Below are positions 1,195 to 5,782 of a DNA stretch of 10,150 nt, one piece after another. Source of the stretch: a virus; the UHGV virus genome UHGV-0195723; one strand, 5' to 3'. A program made the position numbers and the translations under genes. The first letter of the stretch is position 1; every line of letters begins with the position of its first letter. The notes under the pieces were generated by a model, which did not search any database, was not told where the DNA came from, and saw nothing but the letters and a program-made list of their open reading frames with translations.

Positions 1195-1226
1195 GGTGCG
1201 CATAATGTCTACGCGTTATGTTGAAA
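1195..1226. other. dif-like hybrid recombination site (prophage attL): GGTGCGCATAA-TGTCTACGCG-TTATGTTGAAA
   Basis: The 11-nt XerC arm is identical to E. coli dif. It is followed by a 10-nt spacer instead of the 6-nt TGTATA core, then an arm matching the dif XerD arm at 10 of 11 positions. It lies 78 bp past the hipA stop and in direct orientation with the perfect dif at 8507. Confidence 0.7.
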
Positions 1227-1263
1227 AGGCCGCTGCGAAAATCTCTCCCGCGGCGGCCTCTTT
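1227..1263 (-). terminator. Intrinsic terminator for the reverse-strand ORF at 1285..1626
   Basis: GC-rich inverted repeat AGGCCGCTGCG / CGCGGCGGCCT (one mismatch) with an 11-nt loop. Read on the minus strand the stem is followed directly by TTTT (complement of AAAA at 1224-1227). On the plus strand it is followed only by CTTT. Confidence 0.5.
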
Positions 1264-1284
1264 AGCATAACGTCATTGTGCGCA

Positions 1285-1626
1285 TCAGCTTGCGTCTTGC
1301 AGCCGTTTCCTGACCATTTCGAATGCTCGCTGCAACGTTCCTTTATCGGATATGTGCATGATTTCATTTGCCAACATTTTCAAAACATCATCGTTTAATT
1401 CTTTTGCCAGAACTAGGGCGCTCATTCCTAATGTGAATCGTGGTGATATGGGAACAGGCATATTGTCTTCTTCGAAGATGGCGTTTAATTCTTTCTGAAC
1501 AGATTTTTGCATGCTTGAAAAATCCTTTTCAATGAACAGGTTACGACATGTATTTATCAGCATATCTTTACGCTCTACGTTCAGCATGCTGTCAACCATC
1601 GCGTCGATTATTGATGAATCGCTCAT
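1285..1626 (-). CDS. Hypothetical protein, 113 aa, acidic, no transmembrane segment evident; prophage-encoded, function unknown
   Basis: ATG at 1626-1624 is preceded on the minus strand by AAAGGA about 7 nt upstream. A terminator follows the stop. No family recognised by eye. Confidence 0.6.
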   Translation of the reverse strand: MSDSSIIDAMVDSMLNVERKDMLINTCRNLFIEKDFSSMQKSVQKELNAIFEEDNMPVPISPRFTLGMSALVLAKELNDDVLKMLANEIMHISDKGTLQRAFEMVRKRLQDAS

Positions 1627-1755
1627 TGTTAATCCTTTGTTAATTATTCAGTGACTTTTCGTCTATCCAACTAATTAATACTTCAACCATCAAGCCTGCT
1701 CGATTGTTCACATTTTCGCCGCGAAGCGGTTCGGGGTTCTGTGACACCCGAACTT

Positions 1756-1781
1756 TGGTGCGGTTTCCCGCACTTATTTTT
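1756..1781 (+). terminator. Plus-strand stem-loop with T-run (terminator-like; alternatively a ssDNA origin or packaging hairpin)
   Basis: GTGCGG (1757-1762), loop TTTC, CCGCAC (1767-1772), then TTATTTTTT. It is one of three consecutive hairpins between 1717 and 1781. There is no obvious plus-strand gene upstream for it to terminate. Confidence 0.35.
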
Positions 1782-2082
1782 TGTACAGACCGTTTTTTTC
1801 GTTCTCTTCATAAGCTTTATTCACTCGATCATGCCGCCTTTTTTCTGCTTCTTCGTGCGCTTCGTAGAATCGAGTGTGATTCTCTGCCTCTAATGCTTTT
1901 CTTCTTATGTTGCTTACCACATCTTTAGCAGCATCTTTTGCATAATTATCAATAAGATAATTAACTATATCCGTCCATGCTATAGATGCCCCTGCTTCTT
2001 GGCTTGCATCGATAGCCAATCGTTCCATTTTGATTTTACGCTCGGCAGTAATTGCCATCGTAGTTCGCTTGAATAGTGCCAT
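1774..2082 (-). CDS. Hypothetical protein, 102 aa; candidate DNA-binding regulator (possible ribbon-helix-helix-like N-terminus, charged helical C-terminus)
   Basis: ATG at 2082-2080 with AAAGG about 12 nt upstream on the minus strand. It is divergent from the replication gene across a promoter/palindrome region, positionally like rstR-type repressors of integrative inoviruses. The fold assignment is a guess from the residue pattern only. Confidence 0.5.
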   Translation of the reverse strand: MALFKRTTMAITAERKIKMERLAIDASQEAGASIAWTDIVNYLIDNYAKDAAKDVVSNIRRKALEAENHTRFYEAHEEAEKRRHDRVNKAYEENEKNGLYKK

Positions 2083-2154
2083 CTCATTTCTAACCTTTGG
2101 GTGGAATCAGGATAGGTATCTTATCGTAGTGCATGTGCTTGCGTATCTACATGC

Positions 2155-2184
2155 TTGCATGCACTTGTATCTGTGTGCTATAAA
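2155..2184 (+). promoter_or_regulatory. Candidate sigma70 promoter for the replication gene: -35 TTGCAT (2155-2160), 18-bp spacer, -10 TATAAA (2179-2184)
   Basis: Hexamers read directly from the sequence. Two copies of the palindrome TGCATGCA (2156-2163 and 2202-2209) bracket the -10 element. Not verified experimentally. Confidence 0.4.
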
Positions 2185-2226
2185 TTTTTCATCGGTATAC
2201 GTGCATGCAGGCATAAGGACTTTGTC

Positions 2227-3342
2227 GTGTTCTACGATTGGTTGAGTATTGAACAGGATTTTGGCTACCAATTACCCATCCTTTCAGATGTGGCTTATCA
2301 GCGCATTCATCTTGATAGCGGTGAAGCCAGTGCCTTATCTCAACCAACCTTCCAGCACCGTGGATCTTTCTGTGATGTTGTCTCGATCTCGATCCGTGGT
2401 TCAGTGTTAAAAATGACTGGAAACCCTTCCCGCTGGGGACGTCTTGATAATCTCTTTGGCCTTCCAACTGTAGATACTTGTGTAATGGTATTTAATCAGA
2501 TCCTTACTGAACTGAAATTACCCTTATTTACTAAATGTACAAAATTGATGCCAGGACAATCTAAAGAAAATGAAAAGGCTCATTTAATAACTGATGGTGC
2601 ATTGATTAAAGAACTGCATATAACATCTAATAAATCAGTAGGGAAGGGTAATGAGGATGATTATATTTCTGGCCTTTCTACACAACCCTACAGAAATAGT
2701 GTTCCCCGACTACACTCCAATGGTAAGTCAGTTGACTGGCTTTCCAAAAAAGGTAATGTCAACCTTATATACCCAACAGTATATAACAAAGCTCATGAGC
2801 TTGAGTTGCATAGCCTTGCGAAAATTAAAAATAAATTCTCAGAGGAATCTAAAGAATTTAATTACATAATAGATATTATTAATTACTGCAAGGACAACGG
2901 CATTGTCAGGTTTGAGCAGAAATTAAAGTCTCGTTTTCTTCAAAAACAATCCCTGTGCTATTGGGGACTTTCTGATTATTCTTTGTTAAATAAGTTACAT
3001 TCTGAGTTTCTTGATCTTGATGAAAAGTTATCGGTGAATGCTATGGACTTTGAAACTATTAGTGAACATCTCATTAGTCGTGGTGTCGTTGATACAATTC
3101 GAGCTGCCAATACAACAGCCATGTATGCAATTCAATGGTTTCACGGTCATTCTTTTGATTTAAATAAAAGGCAAGTAAAACAGCATCGAGCAAGATTAAG
3201 AATGATAGGGATTGACATAGCTCAAAAATGTAATGTCTCCAAATTCTCTCCTGTTGTTGTGAAACAAACAAGGGAAATTAAAGTGACTGACTGCGTTATT
3301 CCATCATGGTATTTAAAACCATCACATTTGCGTGTGGCTTAA
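2227..3342 (+). CDS. Rolling-circle replication initiation protein, gene II-like (Phage_CRI family), about 371 aa
   Basis: Synteny as first gene of the Ff-type block. It carries a KASPAK-like block (SIRGSVLKMTGNPSRWG) and a VRFEQKLKSRFL block resembling M13 pII VRFEARIKTRYL. GTG at 2227 has AAGGA 8 nt upstream and gives an N-terminus (FYDWL) aligning with the pII N-terminus (MIDML). The ORF-track start (TTG 2155) lies inside the predicted promoter. Start codon is uncertain. Confidence 0.65.
   Translation: MFYDWLSIEQDFGYQLPILSDVAYQRIHLDSGEASALSQPTFQHRGSFCDVVSISIRGSVLKMTGNPSRWGRLDNLFGLPTVDTCVMVFNQILTELKLPLFTKCTKLMPGQSKENEKAHLITDGALIKELHITSNKSVGKGNEDDYISGLSTQPYRNSVPRLHSNGKSVDWLSKKGNVNLIYPTVYNKAHELELHSLAKIKNKFSEESKEFNYIIDIINYCKDNGIVRFEQKLKSRFLQKQSLCYWGLSDYSLLNKLHSEFLDLDEKLSVNAMDFETISEHLISRGVVDTIRAANTTAMYAIQWFHGHSFDLNKRQVKQHRARLRMIGIDIAQKCNVSKFSPVVVKQTREIKVTDCVIPSWYLKPSHLRVA
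3043..3342 (+). CDS. Possible gene X analogue (in-frame internal start within gene II, C-terminal 99 aa)
   Basis: In-frame ATG at 3043 preceded by GGTGA, by analogy with Ff pX. This is purely positional inference. Confidence 0.25.
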   Translation: MDFETISEHLISRGVVDTIRAANTTAMYAIQWFHGHSFDLNKRQVKQHRARLRMIGIDIAQKCNVSKFSPVVVKQTREIKVTDCVIPSWYLKPSHLRVA

Positions 3343-3358
3343 TTTAAAAGGTGTTTAT

Positions 3359-3652
3359 ATGAGTAGTAATTTAGGAAATCTAGAAACGACAGTTACCGGA
3401 AAAATTAAACGTTTTAACAGTAGTGGTGGTTTCTATTACACAACAGTTGTCTCTCCGGCTGCCGATGCTTACAGCTTTCCTCCTGTAATACGCATCAAAT
3501 CAAAAAAATCCTTAGGCCGTGTTGGCGAGGAAATTGTTGACGTTCCATGCCGTGTAACGGGGTACGAGCGCAGCTTCCCTTACACTGACAAGCAAACTGG
3601 CGAGCAATCTAAAGGTTACAACGTTGATATGCTGCTTGAATTGTTGGAGTGA
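3359..3652 (+). CDS. Putative ssDNA-binding protein (gene V position), 97 aa
   Basis: ATG at 3359 with AAAGGTG 5 nt upstream; stop TGA at 3650-3652. Small, beta-rich-looking, and located between gene II and gene VII. No recognisable similarity to M13 gVp by eye, so the call is by synteny only. Confidence 0.45.
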   Translation: MSSNLGNLETTVTGKIKRFNSSGGFYYTTVVSPAADAYSFPPVIRIKSKKSLGRVGEEIVDVPCRVTGYERSFPYTDKQTGEQSKGYNVDMLLELLE

Positions 3653-3654
3653 TT

Positions 3655-3753
3655 ATGGGATCGACAGATTTCCAATCCCTTTATCAACTAATCTTTAACG
3701 CCGGGCTTGTAATTTGTTTCGGCCTCGGCGTTATAAGTGGTGGTCAAAGATGA
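3655..3753 (+). CDS. gVII: Minor coat protein pVII-like, 32 aa
   Basis: Translation MGSTDFQSLYQLIFNAGLVICFGLGVISGGQR matches M13 pVII (MEQVADFDTIYQAMIQISVVLCFALGIIAGGQR) in length and C-terminal motif. It starts 3 nt after the gene V stop. Confidence 0.7.
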   Translation: MGSTDFQSLYQLIFNAGLVICFGLGVISGGQR

Positions 3754-3848
3754 GTGATTTATCTTATTTCTTTGCTGCTTATTGTATCGGCTGGGTGATT
3801 TCTCACTCCATCCTTGTGTTTAAAAAACTTTCTGAGGTTTCAACATGA
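3750..3848 (+). CDS. gIX: Minor coat protein pIX-like, 32 aa
   Basis: Translation MSDLSYFFAAYCIGWVISHSILVFKKLSEVST has the length and hydrophobic pattern of M13 pIX. Its start overlaps the gene VII stop (ATGA) and its stop overlaps the gene VIII start (ATGA). Confidence 0.6.
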   Translation: MSDLSYFFAAYCIGWVISHSILVFKKLSEVST

Positions 3849-4072
3849 AAAAATCTGTTATTTCTAAAATTGTTGCAGGTTCAACTCTGGTAATTGGTTC
3901 TTCAGCTTTTGCTGCTGAAGGTGATGCTACCTCTCAGGCGAAAGTTGCTTTTGATTCTCTCACCGCACAGGCTACTGAAATGTCCGGCTATGCCTGGTCA
4001 TTGGTTGTATTAGTTGTTGGTGCAACAGTGGGAATCAAACTCTTTAAGAAATTTGTTAACCGCGCATCTTAA
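3845..4072 (+). CDS. gVIII: Major coat protein pVIII precursor, 75 aa
   Basis: Signal peptide ending SAFA, then mature AEGDATSQAKVAFDSLTAQATEMSGYAWSLVVLVVGATVGIKLFKKFVNRAS. Close to Ff/If1-type pVIII (acidic N-terminus, GYAW, GIKLFKKF, basic C-terminus). Confidence 0.93.
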   Translation: MKKSVISKIVAGSTLVIGSSAFAAEGDATSQAKVAFDSLTAQATEMSGYAWSLVVLVVGATVGIKLFKKFVNRAS

Positions 4073-4110
4073 TATTAGCCTTTCTTTTACCTGCCAACAC
4101 CGTAAGTTAA

Positions 4111-4133
4111 TGGGTGGCTTACGCCACCCCTTT
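4111..4133 (+). terminator. Rho-independent terminator after gene VIII
   Basis: Perfect 7-bp stem GGGTGGC / GCCACCC with loop TTAC, followed by CTTTT. Ff phages have a strong terminator at the same position. Confidence 0.7.
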
Positions 4134-4145
4134 TAGGCATTAAAA

Positions 4146-5438
4146 ATGAAAAGATTACTTCCGCCTTTATTATTCGCATCTTTCTTTGCTAATGCTGCAA
4201 CTGATGCCGAATGCATTGCAAAACCAGAATTTGAAGCATCTATGACAAACGTCTGGAAAGATGACCAGACATTAGATCGTTATGCTAACTACGAGGGCTG
4301 TTTGTGGAATGCTACTGGTGTTGTTGTTTGTACTGGTGACGAAAATCAATGTTATGGCACATGGAAGCCTATTGGCGCAGCTATTCCTGAAGGTGGCGGC
4401 TCAGGAGGTAATGAAGGAGGAGGGGGCTCAGGTGGCGGTGATGGTGGTAACACTGGAACAGATCCAAAACCCGGATATACATATGTTAATCCTCTAGATG
4501 GAACTTATCCGCCTGGTTCCGAACAGAATCCGAATAATCCCAATCCAACGCTATATGATGAACAACCATTAAATACATGGGTTTTTCAGGGGAACAGGTT
4601 TGTAAATAAACAAGGGGCATTAACCGTTTATACTGGTTCTGTATCTACAGGCACAGACCCCGTGGTAACTAAAATTCAATATACGCCAGTTTCCTCTAAA
4701 GCTATGTACGATTTATTCTGGAATGGTAAGTTTCGGGATTGTGCTTTCCATTCAGGATTCAACGAAGATCCTTTTGTTTGTGATTATCAAGGCCAGCCAT
4801 CAGAAATTCCTCAACCTCCAGTTAATGGCGGTGGTTCAGGTTCTGGCGGTGGCGGCTCCGGTGGTGGTTCCGGTGGTGGTTCCGGTGGTGGCGATGGTGG
4901 CTCCGGTGGCGGCTCCGATGGTGGAAACACTGGAGGTGGTGACGGTGGAGGTTCTGGCGGAGGCTCAGGGACCGGAGATTTCGATTATGACCGTATGGCT
5001 AAGGCCAACAAGGACGCCATGACGGAAGAATTCGATTCTTCTGCAATTCAGTCTGATATTTCTTCCTCTTTGGATGGAACAGTCCAGAACCTTACAGACT
5101 CTGTAAAAGGCCTATCTGACAGCGTTGGCGGTCTTCTTGGTGCTGGTACTCCTGTATCTCCGGAGTTTTCTGGTGCATCTGCTGATATGCAAAAAATTGG
5201 TTCTGGTGACAGTTCACCATTGCTGGATGCTTTTACTAAAGGAAAGTTATTTCCTTCATTACCATCGGCAAAACAATGTACTCCCTTTGTTTTTGCTGCC
5301 GGAAAGAAATATGAATTCACTATAGAGTGCAAATATATTGACATGTTTAAATCTGTATTTGCATTTATTCTTTATTTCTGGACTTTTGTTACCGTTTACG
5401 ATTCTTTTGCCGGGATACTCAGGAAAGGTAAGGAGTAA
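4146..5438 (+). CDS. gIII: Attachment (adsorption) protein pIII, 430 aa, with N1 and N2 domains, two glycine-rich linkers and a C-terminal membrane anchor
   Basis: N1 segment [40 protein letters not shown] and N2 segment [16 protein letters not shown]...[12 protein letters not shown]...[21 protein letters not shown] are near-identical to M13 g3p. The C-terminal domain (GDFDY...[12 protein letters not shown]...) and hydrophobic anchor are conserved. Confidence 0.95.
4826..4972 (+). repeat. Tandem GGTGGTGGTTCC-type repeats encoding the second Gly/Ser linker of pIII
   Basis: Two perfect 12-nt units at 4860-4883 flanked by degenerate copies. A shorter first linker lies at about 4391-4450. Confidence 0.7.
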
Positions 5439-5440
5439 TT

Positions 5441-5782
5441 ATGCCAGCGTTTTTAGGATTGCCTTTGCTTGCGCGTTTTATTGGGTGGCTAGCGGGGGCT
5501 TTAATCGGTTATTTTGCAAGGTTTATTACATTAGGCATTGCACGTATTGCACTTGCAATAACACTTTTTCTGGCCTTAATTGTTGGCCTTAACCAATTAC
5601 TGGTCTCTTATTTGTCTGATTTAGTTGCAGCATTGCCAGCAGAAATATCAGATGCAATATCTTATATTATCCCTTCAAATGCACTACCTTGCCTTTATGC
5701 AATCTTTTCATTGAAGGCTGCGATTTTTATATTTGATGTAAAAGACCGCATTATTGGTTATCTTGACTGGAATAAATCATAA
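5441..5782 (+). CDS. gVI: Minor coat protein pVI, 113 aa
   Basis: AGGAG RBS then ATG at 5441. Translation aligns along its whole length with M13 pVI (LSDxxAxLP, IPSNALPC, KAAIFIFDVK, YLDW). Confidence 0.9.
   Translation: MPAFLGLPLLARFIGWLAGALIGYFARFITLGIARIALAITLFLALIVGLNQLLVSYLSDLVAALPAEISDAISYIIPSNALPCLYAIFSLKAAIFIFDVKDRIIGYLDWNKS

Follow-up and report, generated by a model that had tools for sequence, protein, structure and literature searches.

A mosaic attachment protein with Ff-type N1-N2 domains and an If1-type C-terminal domain in a filamentous prophage integrated at dif

The DNA analysed here (the window) comprises the 10,150 nucleotides of virus genome UHGV-0195723 and contains a filamentous prophage, whose gene III encodes the attachment protein g3p (pIII). 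This protein is a mosaic, in which N1 and N2 domains of the type found in the Ff phages (M13, fd and f1) are joined to a C-terminal domain of the type found in phage If1. Textbooks present the Ff phages as filamentous phages that are F-specific and do not integrate, and phage display relies mainly on them; here, their receptor-binding module N1-N2 occurs naturally on an If1-like, dif-lysogenising backbone, and it does so in several enterobacterial genera. Taken as a whole, the evidence makes it probable that this is gene III of an intact dif prophage whose virions would enter through an F-type pilus and then TolA, with an If1-type anchor and with linkers that change in length by slippage. The initial annotation of the gene had predicted Ff-type receptor use by an integrated phage, but overlooked the If1-type C-terminal domain and the If1-like, dif-integrating backbone.

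Gene III coincides exactly with an uninterrupted open reading frame (ORF) at 4146..5438 on the + strand, encoding 430 amino acids followed by a stop codon. In a phmmer search of all PDB sequences its product matches full-length f1 g3p (8b3o) over aa 19-427 with an E-value of 5.4e-166, fd N1-N2 (2g3p) at 1e-108 and M13 (1g3p) at 6e-106, while N1 of If1 (2x9a) and the TolA-binding domain of IKe (4eo1) appear only at 4.7e-12 and 4.9e-9, respectively. The Pfam family Phage_Coat_A (PF05357) is recognised with 127.8 bits against a cut-off of 20.8, and the PHROG family "attachment protein" with an E-value of 6e-214. The protein starts with a signal peptide (aa 1-17, 4146..4196), placed by alignment with the M13 and If1 precursors and probably cleaved after ANA. 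It continues with the N1 domain (aa 18-82, 4197..4391), a first glycine-rich linker (4392..4451), the N2 domain (aa 103-227, 4452..4826), a second glycine-rich linker of 50 residues (4827..4976) and the C-terminal domain (aa 278-430, 4977..5435), which contains Cys 378 and 395 and the membrane anchor.

The type of each domain is given by a MAFFT alignment with the g3p proteins of M13, If1 and IKe. Over its whole length pIII is 64.7% identical to M13 and 47.9% to If1, and it is the sole one of the phage proteins compared that is nearer to M13. The N1 core (aa 34-82) shares 45 of 49 residues with M13 (92%) and 17 of 47 with If1 (36%). N2 (aa 108-227) shares 95 of 120 with M13 (79%) and, in a forced alignment, 26 of 118 with If1 (22%), and not one residue of IKe g3p aligns with it, so the annotated Ff type of both domains is upheld. 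The near-identity to M13 initially noted for key stretches is accurate, the longest identical runs measuring 25 (aa 42-66), 21 (aa 192-212) and 12 residues (aa 178-189); the domains as wholes are less similar, at 79-92% identity. The signal peptide and the head of N1 (aa 1-33) are about equidistant from M13 (41-44%) and If1 (47-50%), and the N1 head proper (aa 18-33) is assignable to neither type. By contrast, the C-terminal domain (aa 284-430) is 69% identical to that of If1, 44% to that of M13 and 31% to that of IKe, and its membrane anchor includes a run of 17 residues identical to If1.

The mosaic is equally visible in the DNA. Homology to If1 extends across 2228..4261 and 4968..8171 (about 5.2 kb) at 72-75% identity, and homology to M13 across 4245..5027 at ~69% identity, the DNA matches to M13 being patchy overall (67-72%). 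The first switch point, at about 4245-4261, falls on the conserved NVWK motif of N1, and the second, at about 4968-5027, on the conserved GDFDY...MA-ANK start of the C-terminal domain. Both are plausible junctions of homologous recombination. A boundary in linker 2 would have a structural reason, since the C-terminal domain would need to co-assemble with the If1-type pVI. Because the Ff-type segment has diverged from M13 as much as the backbone has from If1, the lineage is old, and a recent import of the M13 N1-N2 region was rejected on its DNA identity of only about 69%. The exchange may also have run the other way, with If1 as the phage that, compared with this clade, swapped its pilus-binding domain. 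The protein is a clean-cut natural case in which receptor domains were exchanged, at conserved junctions, within a single phage protein.

N2 domains of the Ff type form a very narrow family: an exhaustive search of 1.84 billion cluster representatives by phmmer, with N2 only, returned one full-length match, an Ff relative with 82% identity, plus two distant partial N2-like modules. The latter (P0027, 401 aa, and P0028, 519 aa) contain a shorter segment of the form ...YDAxDxGKLxxCAFxSGFN...; one of the two proteins has an If1-like N1 and C-terminal domain, and the architecture of the other is unrelated. Their segments may be distantly related to the fold of Ff N2.

The backbone around gene III is that of If1. 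In global alignments, identity to If1 and M13, respectively, amounts to 87.5% and 17% for pV, 90.5% and 56% for pVIII, 80.5% and 58% for pVI, 77.6% and 67% for pI, and 80.6% and 55% for pIV; pII is 81.7% identical to If1 ORF320 and 24% to M13 pII. The best full-length matches of pIII in PDB and in phage databases are Ff proteins, which is what a plain integrated M13/fd/f1-like phage would produce. This explanation is nevertheless extremely improbable. It is refuted by the remaining proteins, which are 78-90% identical to If1 (pII 82%) against 17-67% to M13, by the If1-type C-terminal domain, by the ~69% DNA identity of N1-N2 to M13, and by a phage attachment site (attP) that M13 lacks. Among deposited phage genomes none has the pIII of the window, the best matches being Ff phages at ~61% and If1 with 48% coverage.

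The prophage is present as a single copy of 7298 bp on the + strand (1209..8506), delimited by comparison with an empty site (L003), to which the match ends at 1208 and restarts at 8506. The host flanks are 99.7-99.9% identical to Escherichia coli strains of the ST131 type and others; hipA lies to the left of the insert and, to its right, a fimA-like fimbrial operon, and in prophage-free strains these two regions are contiguous at a single dif site. At the left end, attL (1195..1226, + strand) is a hybrid site, GGTGCGCATAATGT|CTACGCGTTATGTTGAAA, in which the host dif XerC arm and the first central bases are joined to phage attP sequence. At the right end, attR (8507..8534, + strand) is an exact copy of the 28-bp E. 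coli dif, GGTGCGCATAATGTATATTATGTTAAAT, with 0 mismatches and with 0 matches expected by chance. Together, both sites bear out the integrated state that the initial annotation had assumed.

The phage site attP, GGTGCGCATAATGT-N7-GTTATGTTGAAA, is found at the junctions between tandem copies and on free contigs of ~7 kb, one of which (L014) carries a terminal repeat of 17 bases, in agreement with a circular molecule. The site is absent from M13, If1, IKe and I2-2. Since Pfam and PHROG scans of the prophage ORFs reveal no recombinase family, and by analogy with CTX-phi, CUS-phi/Ypf-phi and UP-phi, integration at dif is likely to be carried out by the host recombinases XerCD. A comparison of the attP central region in the window (1209-1215) and in L001, L002 and L008-L015 indicates that the 7 bases between GGTGCGCATAATGT and GTTATGTTGAAA vary by lineage (CTACGCG, CAACGCG, GCGAATC, GCTACAC or GCCACAC), with conserved arms. 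This spacing of 7 bases exceeds the 6-bp central region of dif.

How the receptor-binding domains may work is indicated by the conservation of individual residues. All eight cysteines of pIII align with those of fd (C7, C36, C46, C53, C188, C201, C354 and C371): Cys 23, 52, 62 and 69 of N1 correspond to fd residues 7, 36, 46 and 53 (disulfides C7-C36 and C46-C53), and Cys 199 and 212 of N2 to the fd disulfide pair C188-C201. The hinge PQPPVN (aa 222-227, 4809..4826) is also conserved and contains the Gln-Pro that matches fd Gln212-Pro213. The roles of these residues come from work on fd, where the cysteines form disulfides and Gln212-Pro213 is the hinge by which N1 is locked to N2. N1 furthermore carries the YGT motif (aa 70-72, 4353..4361), named as a TolA-contact motif (PMC10424213). 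In fd g3p, N1 is docked on N2 and the TolA site is hidden until the pilus is bound, while the pIII of If1, which binds IncI pili, has a permanently accessible TolA site (PMC10175506, PMC7911016).

Use of TolA by the N1 domain, as initially predicted, is well supported by its 92% core identity to M13 and by the YGT motif. The prediction is robust, since the pIII of If1 is likewise reported to bind the C-terminal part of TolA, TolA-C (PMC7911016), and IKe is counted among the TolA-binding phages (PMC10424213). Because N1 core, N2 and hinge are all conserved, a mechanism of the fd type is to be expected. Through N2, the virion would adsorb to an F-type conjugative pilus at its tip. Binding and retraction of the pilus would then open the hinge and free N1 from N2, undoing an fd-like lock that would include the Gln-Pro hinge, and the freed N1 could bind TolA-C. 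The If1-type C-terminal domain, matched to an If1-type pVI, would subsequently open the virion tip and insert into the inner membrane. Once inside the cell, the replicative form would recombine with dif through the dif-like attP by means of host XerCD, while replication slippage in the glycine codon repeats would keep generating in-frame variants of linker length.

Several points weigh against this sequence of events. Binding of F-type pili by N2 is plausible, but as a homology-based prediction at 79% identity: N2 differs from M13 at 25 of the 120 aligned positions, and its N-terminal segment is 5 residues shorter than that of M13. Klebsiella F-like pilins differ from TraA of F, and many carriers of the prophage are Klebsiella. 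By analogy with CTX-phi, virion production might be poor when just one copy is integrated at dif and its attL is a hybrid. An AlphaFold2 model of N1-N2 (aa 18-229), built on a 9-row alignment, is of low confidence (mean pLDDT 48.5); the alignment is this shallow because the family is so narrow, and the fd-like docked horseshoe is therefore predicted from the ~80% sequence identity to 1g3p and 2g3p. Finally, a residue-level map of the pilus-binding surface of N2 was not found in the searchable literature, the f1 cryo-EM paper making domain-level statements (PMC10175506).

The 25 substitutions and the predominance of Klebsiella among the carriers would permit a shift of specificity among the F-type pili. 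N2 might retain its fold and recognise other pili of the MPF_F type, such as those of plasmids resembling Klebsiella IncFII(K), and the classical F pilus poorly or not at all. Such a shift is conceivable but unlikely. It would account for an N2 just 79% identical to that of M13, for a distance of 28-34% in N2 between the lineages that carry this module (P0002, P0003), a diversity far greater than that of the Ff group (79-93% identity among M13, P0004 and P0005), and for the fact that one carrier replicon is an MPF_F/MOBH conjugative Klebsiella plasmid and the listed named cluster members are mostly Klebsiella. However, two of the longest blocks identical to M13, those of 21 and 12 residues, fall inside this very domain, the same allele occurs in E. 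coli and Salmonella too, and none of the N2 substitutions is known to affect the pilus-binding surface.

Adsorption to F-type pili followed by TolA binding, the preferred reading, is also to be judged by the distribution of the module, for which the host spread rests on the names of cluster members and on plasmid and assembly matches. The cluster of pIII at 97% identity holds 103 member sequences under the RefSeq name "attachment protein [Enterobacteriaceae]". They derive from Klebsiella pneumoniae, K. oxytoca, E. coli, Salmonella enterica and Enterobacter cloacae, with Klebsiella forming the majority of the members listed, and one allele alone is found in 148 indexed blocks of the assembly collection. 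Such a spread of near-identical alleles over genera would fit a primary receptor that is encoded by plasmids. Most of the element occurs in just one complete E. coli genome out of 5,426; within E. coli, the closest prophage belongs to strain SW071618. Tandem arrays with a unit of 7300 bp are frequent among the relatives, CP152890.1 having three such copies.

The combination of Ff-type N1-N2 and If1-type C-terminal domain recurs on phage-sized contigs (P0002, P0003, L021, L022 and L023/24, of 6.6-7.5 kb), which speaks for the preferred reading. Their N2 domains are 66-96% identical to that of the window, and several of the contigs have attP. True relatives of If1 (L025, L026 and L028) have kept an If1-type N2 and lack attP. 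In the matrix of domain identities, N2 values between Ff-type and If1-type proteins (e.g., 67, 75 and 100%) arise artefactually from short alignments with free ends and were disregarded in favour of values within a type and of the MAFFT figures. These diverged natural N2 variants, mutually 66-99% identical, constitute a resource for mapping the pilus-binding surface. One of the contigs, L021 (IMGVR_UViG_3300031418_000477, 7514 bp), is 96% identical to the window in N2 and 99% in the C-terminal domain, and only 82% in the N1 core, which suggests an additional exchange or a faster evolution limited to the TolA-binding domain.

Databases already list the lineage under an uncharacterised "attachment protein", and the literature search found no published description of it; what is new is the combination of modules from known kinds of g3p and of XerCD-integrating inovirus. 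No enterobacterial genome among the species representatives has the pIII of the window, the single match being a contig of Actinomadura monticuli (contig44, 8359 bp; L019) with an If1-type pIII C-terminal domain, 72% identical over aa 332-429. This contig most likely reflects contamination by an enterobacterial inovirus. A different kind of carrier is the 316-kb conjugative Klebsiella plasmid of type MPF_F/MOBH (L018; NZ_CP022441.1/NZ_MH681289.1), which holds at least 3 tandem prophage copies. In this case, a phage predicted to use F-type pili rides on a plasmid that encodes an F-type mating apparatus.

The element could, in principle, act in its lysogen rather than by new infection. As a non-productive resident, it would use pIII inside the cell to sequester TolA and to interfere with pili, leading to superinfection exclusion and less conjugation. 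The single copy with its hybrid attL and the frameshifted allele of one relative (P0026, 388 aa) point in this direction, and when cells make pIII or N1, tol phenotypes appear and phage uptake falls by 4 logs (PMC10424213). As the sole role of the element this is improbable: all ten phage genes are intact and have the lengths found in relatives, and the strong conservation of the folded domains over genera (0-3 substitutions), together with the phage-sized contigs, argues for ongoing transmission by virions. The frameshift of P0026, from Klebsiella sp. LY, lies inside the C-terminal domain and implies that at least some copies are decaying.

If N2 does bind F-type pili, these prophages are a natural and heritable supply of a protein with a known blocking effect on F-mediated conjugation and on Tol-dependent uptake, which matters for the ecology of F-like resistance plasmids. 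More speculatively, they may represent a temperate XerCD/dif lineage of F-type-pilus phages in clinical Klebsiella, E. coli, Salmonella and Enterobacter, also present in tandem on MPF_F plasmids, with an N2 perhaps tuned to non-classical F-like pili and a pIII that, expressed constitutively from the prophage, may damp conjugation and Tol-dependent uptake. Should this be true, the prophage would modulate from the chromosome how F-like resistance plasmids spread.

The linkers differ from the folded domains in that they vary in length between alleles. Linker 2 is encoded by tandem nucleotide repeats, as initially noticed: TRF reports periods of 12, 21, 33 and 45 at 4830..4924, the period-12 array comprising 6.8 copies (4847..4924), and three 12-nt TCCGGTGGTGG(T/C) units follow one another at 4857..4892. 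The length variation that had been anticipated from these repeats is found as well. Among 16 near-identical alleles, linker 2 measures 42, 44, 46 or 50 residues, stepping by GGGS (12-nt) and GD units, and linker 1 measures 26, 28, 30 or 32 residues, stepping by Gly-Asp (GGTGAT) units, so that the copy number of this unit also depends on the allele. The folded domains of these 16 alleles show just 0-3 residue differences. The window allele has the longest linker 2 of those compared (50 residues), and the E. coli allele P0021 equals the window protein minus one GGGS unit. In DNA alignments the indels correspond to exactly one repeat unit and remain in frame, which confirms length polymorphism by slippage in both linkers. 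The allele series is thus a record of in-frame repeat slippage. Comparable variation, mainly in how many glycine-rich repeats are present, is described for the g3p of UP-phi (PMC7307601).

Compared with known systems, the protein resembles Ff g3p (genus Inovirus) in the order of signal peptide, N1, glycine linker, N2, glycine linker and C-terminal domain, in its linkers with GGGS-type repeats, and in retaining the full set of disulfide cysteines along with the YGT motif and the Gln-Pro hinge. It differs in its C-terminal domain (44%), in an N1 head of neither type and in the shorter N-terminal segment of N2. The Ff group has an internal DNA identity of 98.5% (PMC10175506), and by genome-wide similarity the window phage lies outside it, with patchy DNA identity of 67-72% and with pV and pIV at 17% and 55%. 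Unlike the episomal, non-integrating Ff phages, it is integrated at dif with attL and attR. It shares with If1 (Infulavirus If1, specific for IncI pili) a collinear backbone with the same gene content and order, in which pII, pV, pVIII, pVI, pI and pIV are 78-90% identical. However, the N2 of If1 is unrelated and about 70 residues longer, and its N1 core is only 36% identical. If1 is not known to integrate, lacks attP, and contains an additional ORF348 as well as long intergenic regions. The window phage is too diverged from If1 to belong to the same species.

The g3p proteins of IKe and I2-2 (Lineavirus) have a homologous TolA-binding domain (44% identical to the N1 core of the window), glycine-rich linkers and a C-terminal anchor, but their pilus-binding domain lies ahead of the TolA-binding domain and has no relationship to the Ff-type N2. 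IKe is specific for N pili. With CUS-phi/Ypf-phi and CTX-phi, the window phage shares integration at dif via a dif-like attP without a phage integrase, as well as relatives in tandem, whereas the adsorption and morphogenesis modules differ. The UP-phi901 group (PMC7307601) is similarly integrated at dif, often in tandem, in E. coli, Klebsiella and Salmonella, and has reverse-oriented accessory ORFs by dif. The core-gene products of UP-phi viruses are at least 98% identical to those of UP-phi901 (Shapiro and Putonti, 2020, PMC7307601), which is IKe/I2-2-like in the genes covered (about 70% amino acid identity over about 70% of the genome) and whose receptor is suspected by its authors to be IncI pili (PMC7307601). 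Genes II and V of UP-phi901 are more than 85% identical to those of Ypf-phi (PMC7307601), any tie to the replication module of the window being indirect. By contrast, the window phage has If1-like morphogenesis genes and Ff-type N1-N2. Membership in UP-phi was rejected, given that the window proteins are 32-55% identical to those of IKe and that the description of UP-phi901 sets the window phage apart.

The remaining genes complete the prophage. Their order, II, V, VII, IX, VIII, III, VI, I, IV, is the canonical and complete inovirus set, and every gene has the length found in the tandem copies of relatives, so the prophage is intact. All lie on the + strand. Gene II (2227..3342) encodes the replication initiator (PF05155, PF05144; phrog_702, E-value 5e-105), with 371 residues from a GTG start placed according to homologues of 371 residues, and gene X is presumably nested within it in frame. 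It is followed by gene V for the single-stranded DNA-binding protein (3359..3652, 97 aa; similar to If1, phrog_8473), gene VII for a minor coat protein (3649..3753; phrog_7781, with homologues annotated as G7P-2), a probable gene IX (3750..3848, 32 aa), which has no family match and is assigned by position and size, and gene VIII for the major coat protein (3845..4072, 75 aa; PF19199). Downstream of gene III are gene VI for a minor coat protein (5441..5782, 113 aa; PF17537), gene I for the assembly ATPase of the Zot family (5782..6846, 354 aa; PF05707) and gene IV for the secretin (6827..8113, 428 aa; PF00263, PF21305 and PF03958). Two accessory ORFs in reverse orientation adjoin attL. One (1285..1626, - strand) has no Pfam or PHROG match and encodes 113 residues, the same number as in relatives; the other (1774..2082, - strand, 102 aa) belongs to phrog_2503.

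Two side observations concern the exchange of modules near dif. At the same dif locus, E. coli CMZE120 (L002) carries another tandem inovirus, with a pII 90.6% and a pV 81% identical to those of the window; its pIII is unrelated to the Ff, If1 or IKe types, and its pVI is a DUF2523 protein. Replication modules and adsorption/morphogenesis modules therefore assort independently. Moreover, ~996 plasmids (945 conjugative, mostly from E. coli) share two short sequences with the left end of the prophage (window 1217-1282 and 1719-1785), the first of which begins exactly at the XerD-arm half of attP (TATGTTGAAAAGG). In the one example inspected, the IncFIA plasmid pECO-816c (L017), they lie at 1501-1566 and 3004-3070, with 97% and 85% identity, and bracket a cassette of ~1.5 kb encoding a hypothetical protein and a TIR-domain protein, whereas in the window they bracket the ORF at 1285..1626. 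The plasmid pieces look like the cargo-swapped remnant of a related element that integrates at Xer sites.

The non-coding features include two hairpins. Between genes VIII and III, a GC-rich hairpin, GGGTGGC-TTAC-GCCACCC followed by CTTTT (4112..4129, + strand), is recognised from sequence and fold. A scan for consensus promoters and terminators around gene III gave nothing convincing and did not call this hairpin, which, from its similar placement to the terminator of Ff phages, is a candidate for a terminator or an attenuator. Directly 3' of gene IV, a DNA fold of 8114..8506 contains a hairpin with a 16-bp stem (8126..8160, + strand), a candidate packaging signal or terminator judging from its position. 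The non-coding region from gene IV to dif (8114-8506) holds the most GC-rich part of the window (0.54), folds slightly more stably than its shuffled versions (z = -2.1), and is the probable packaging-signal and origin region.

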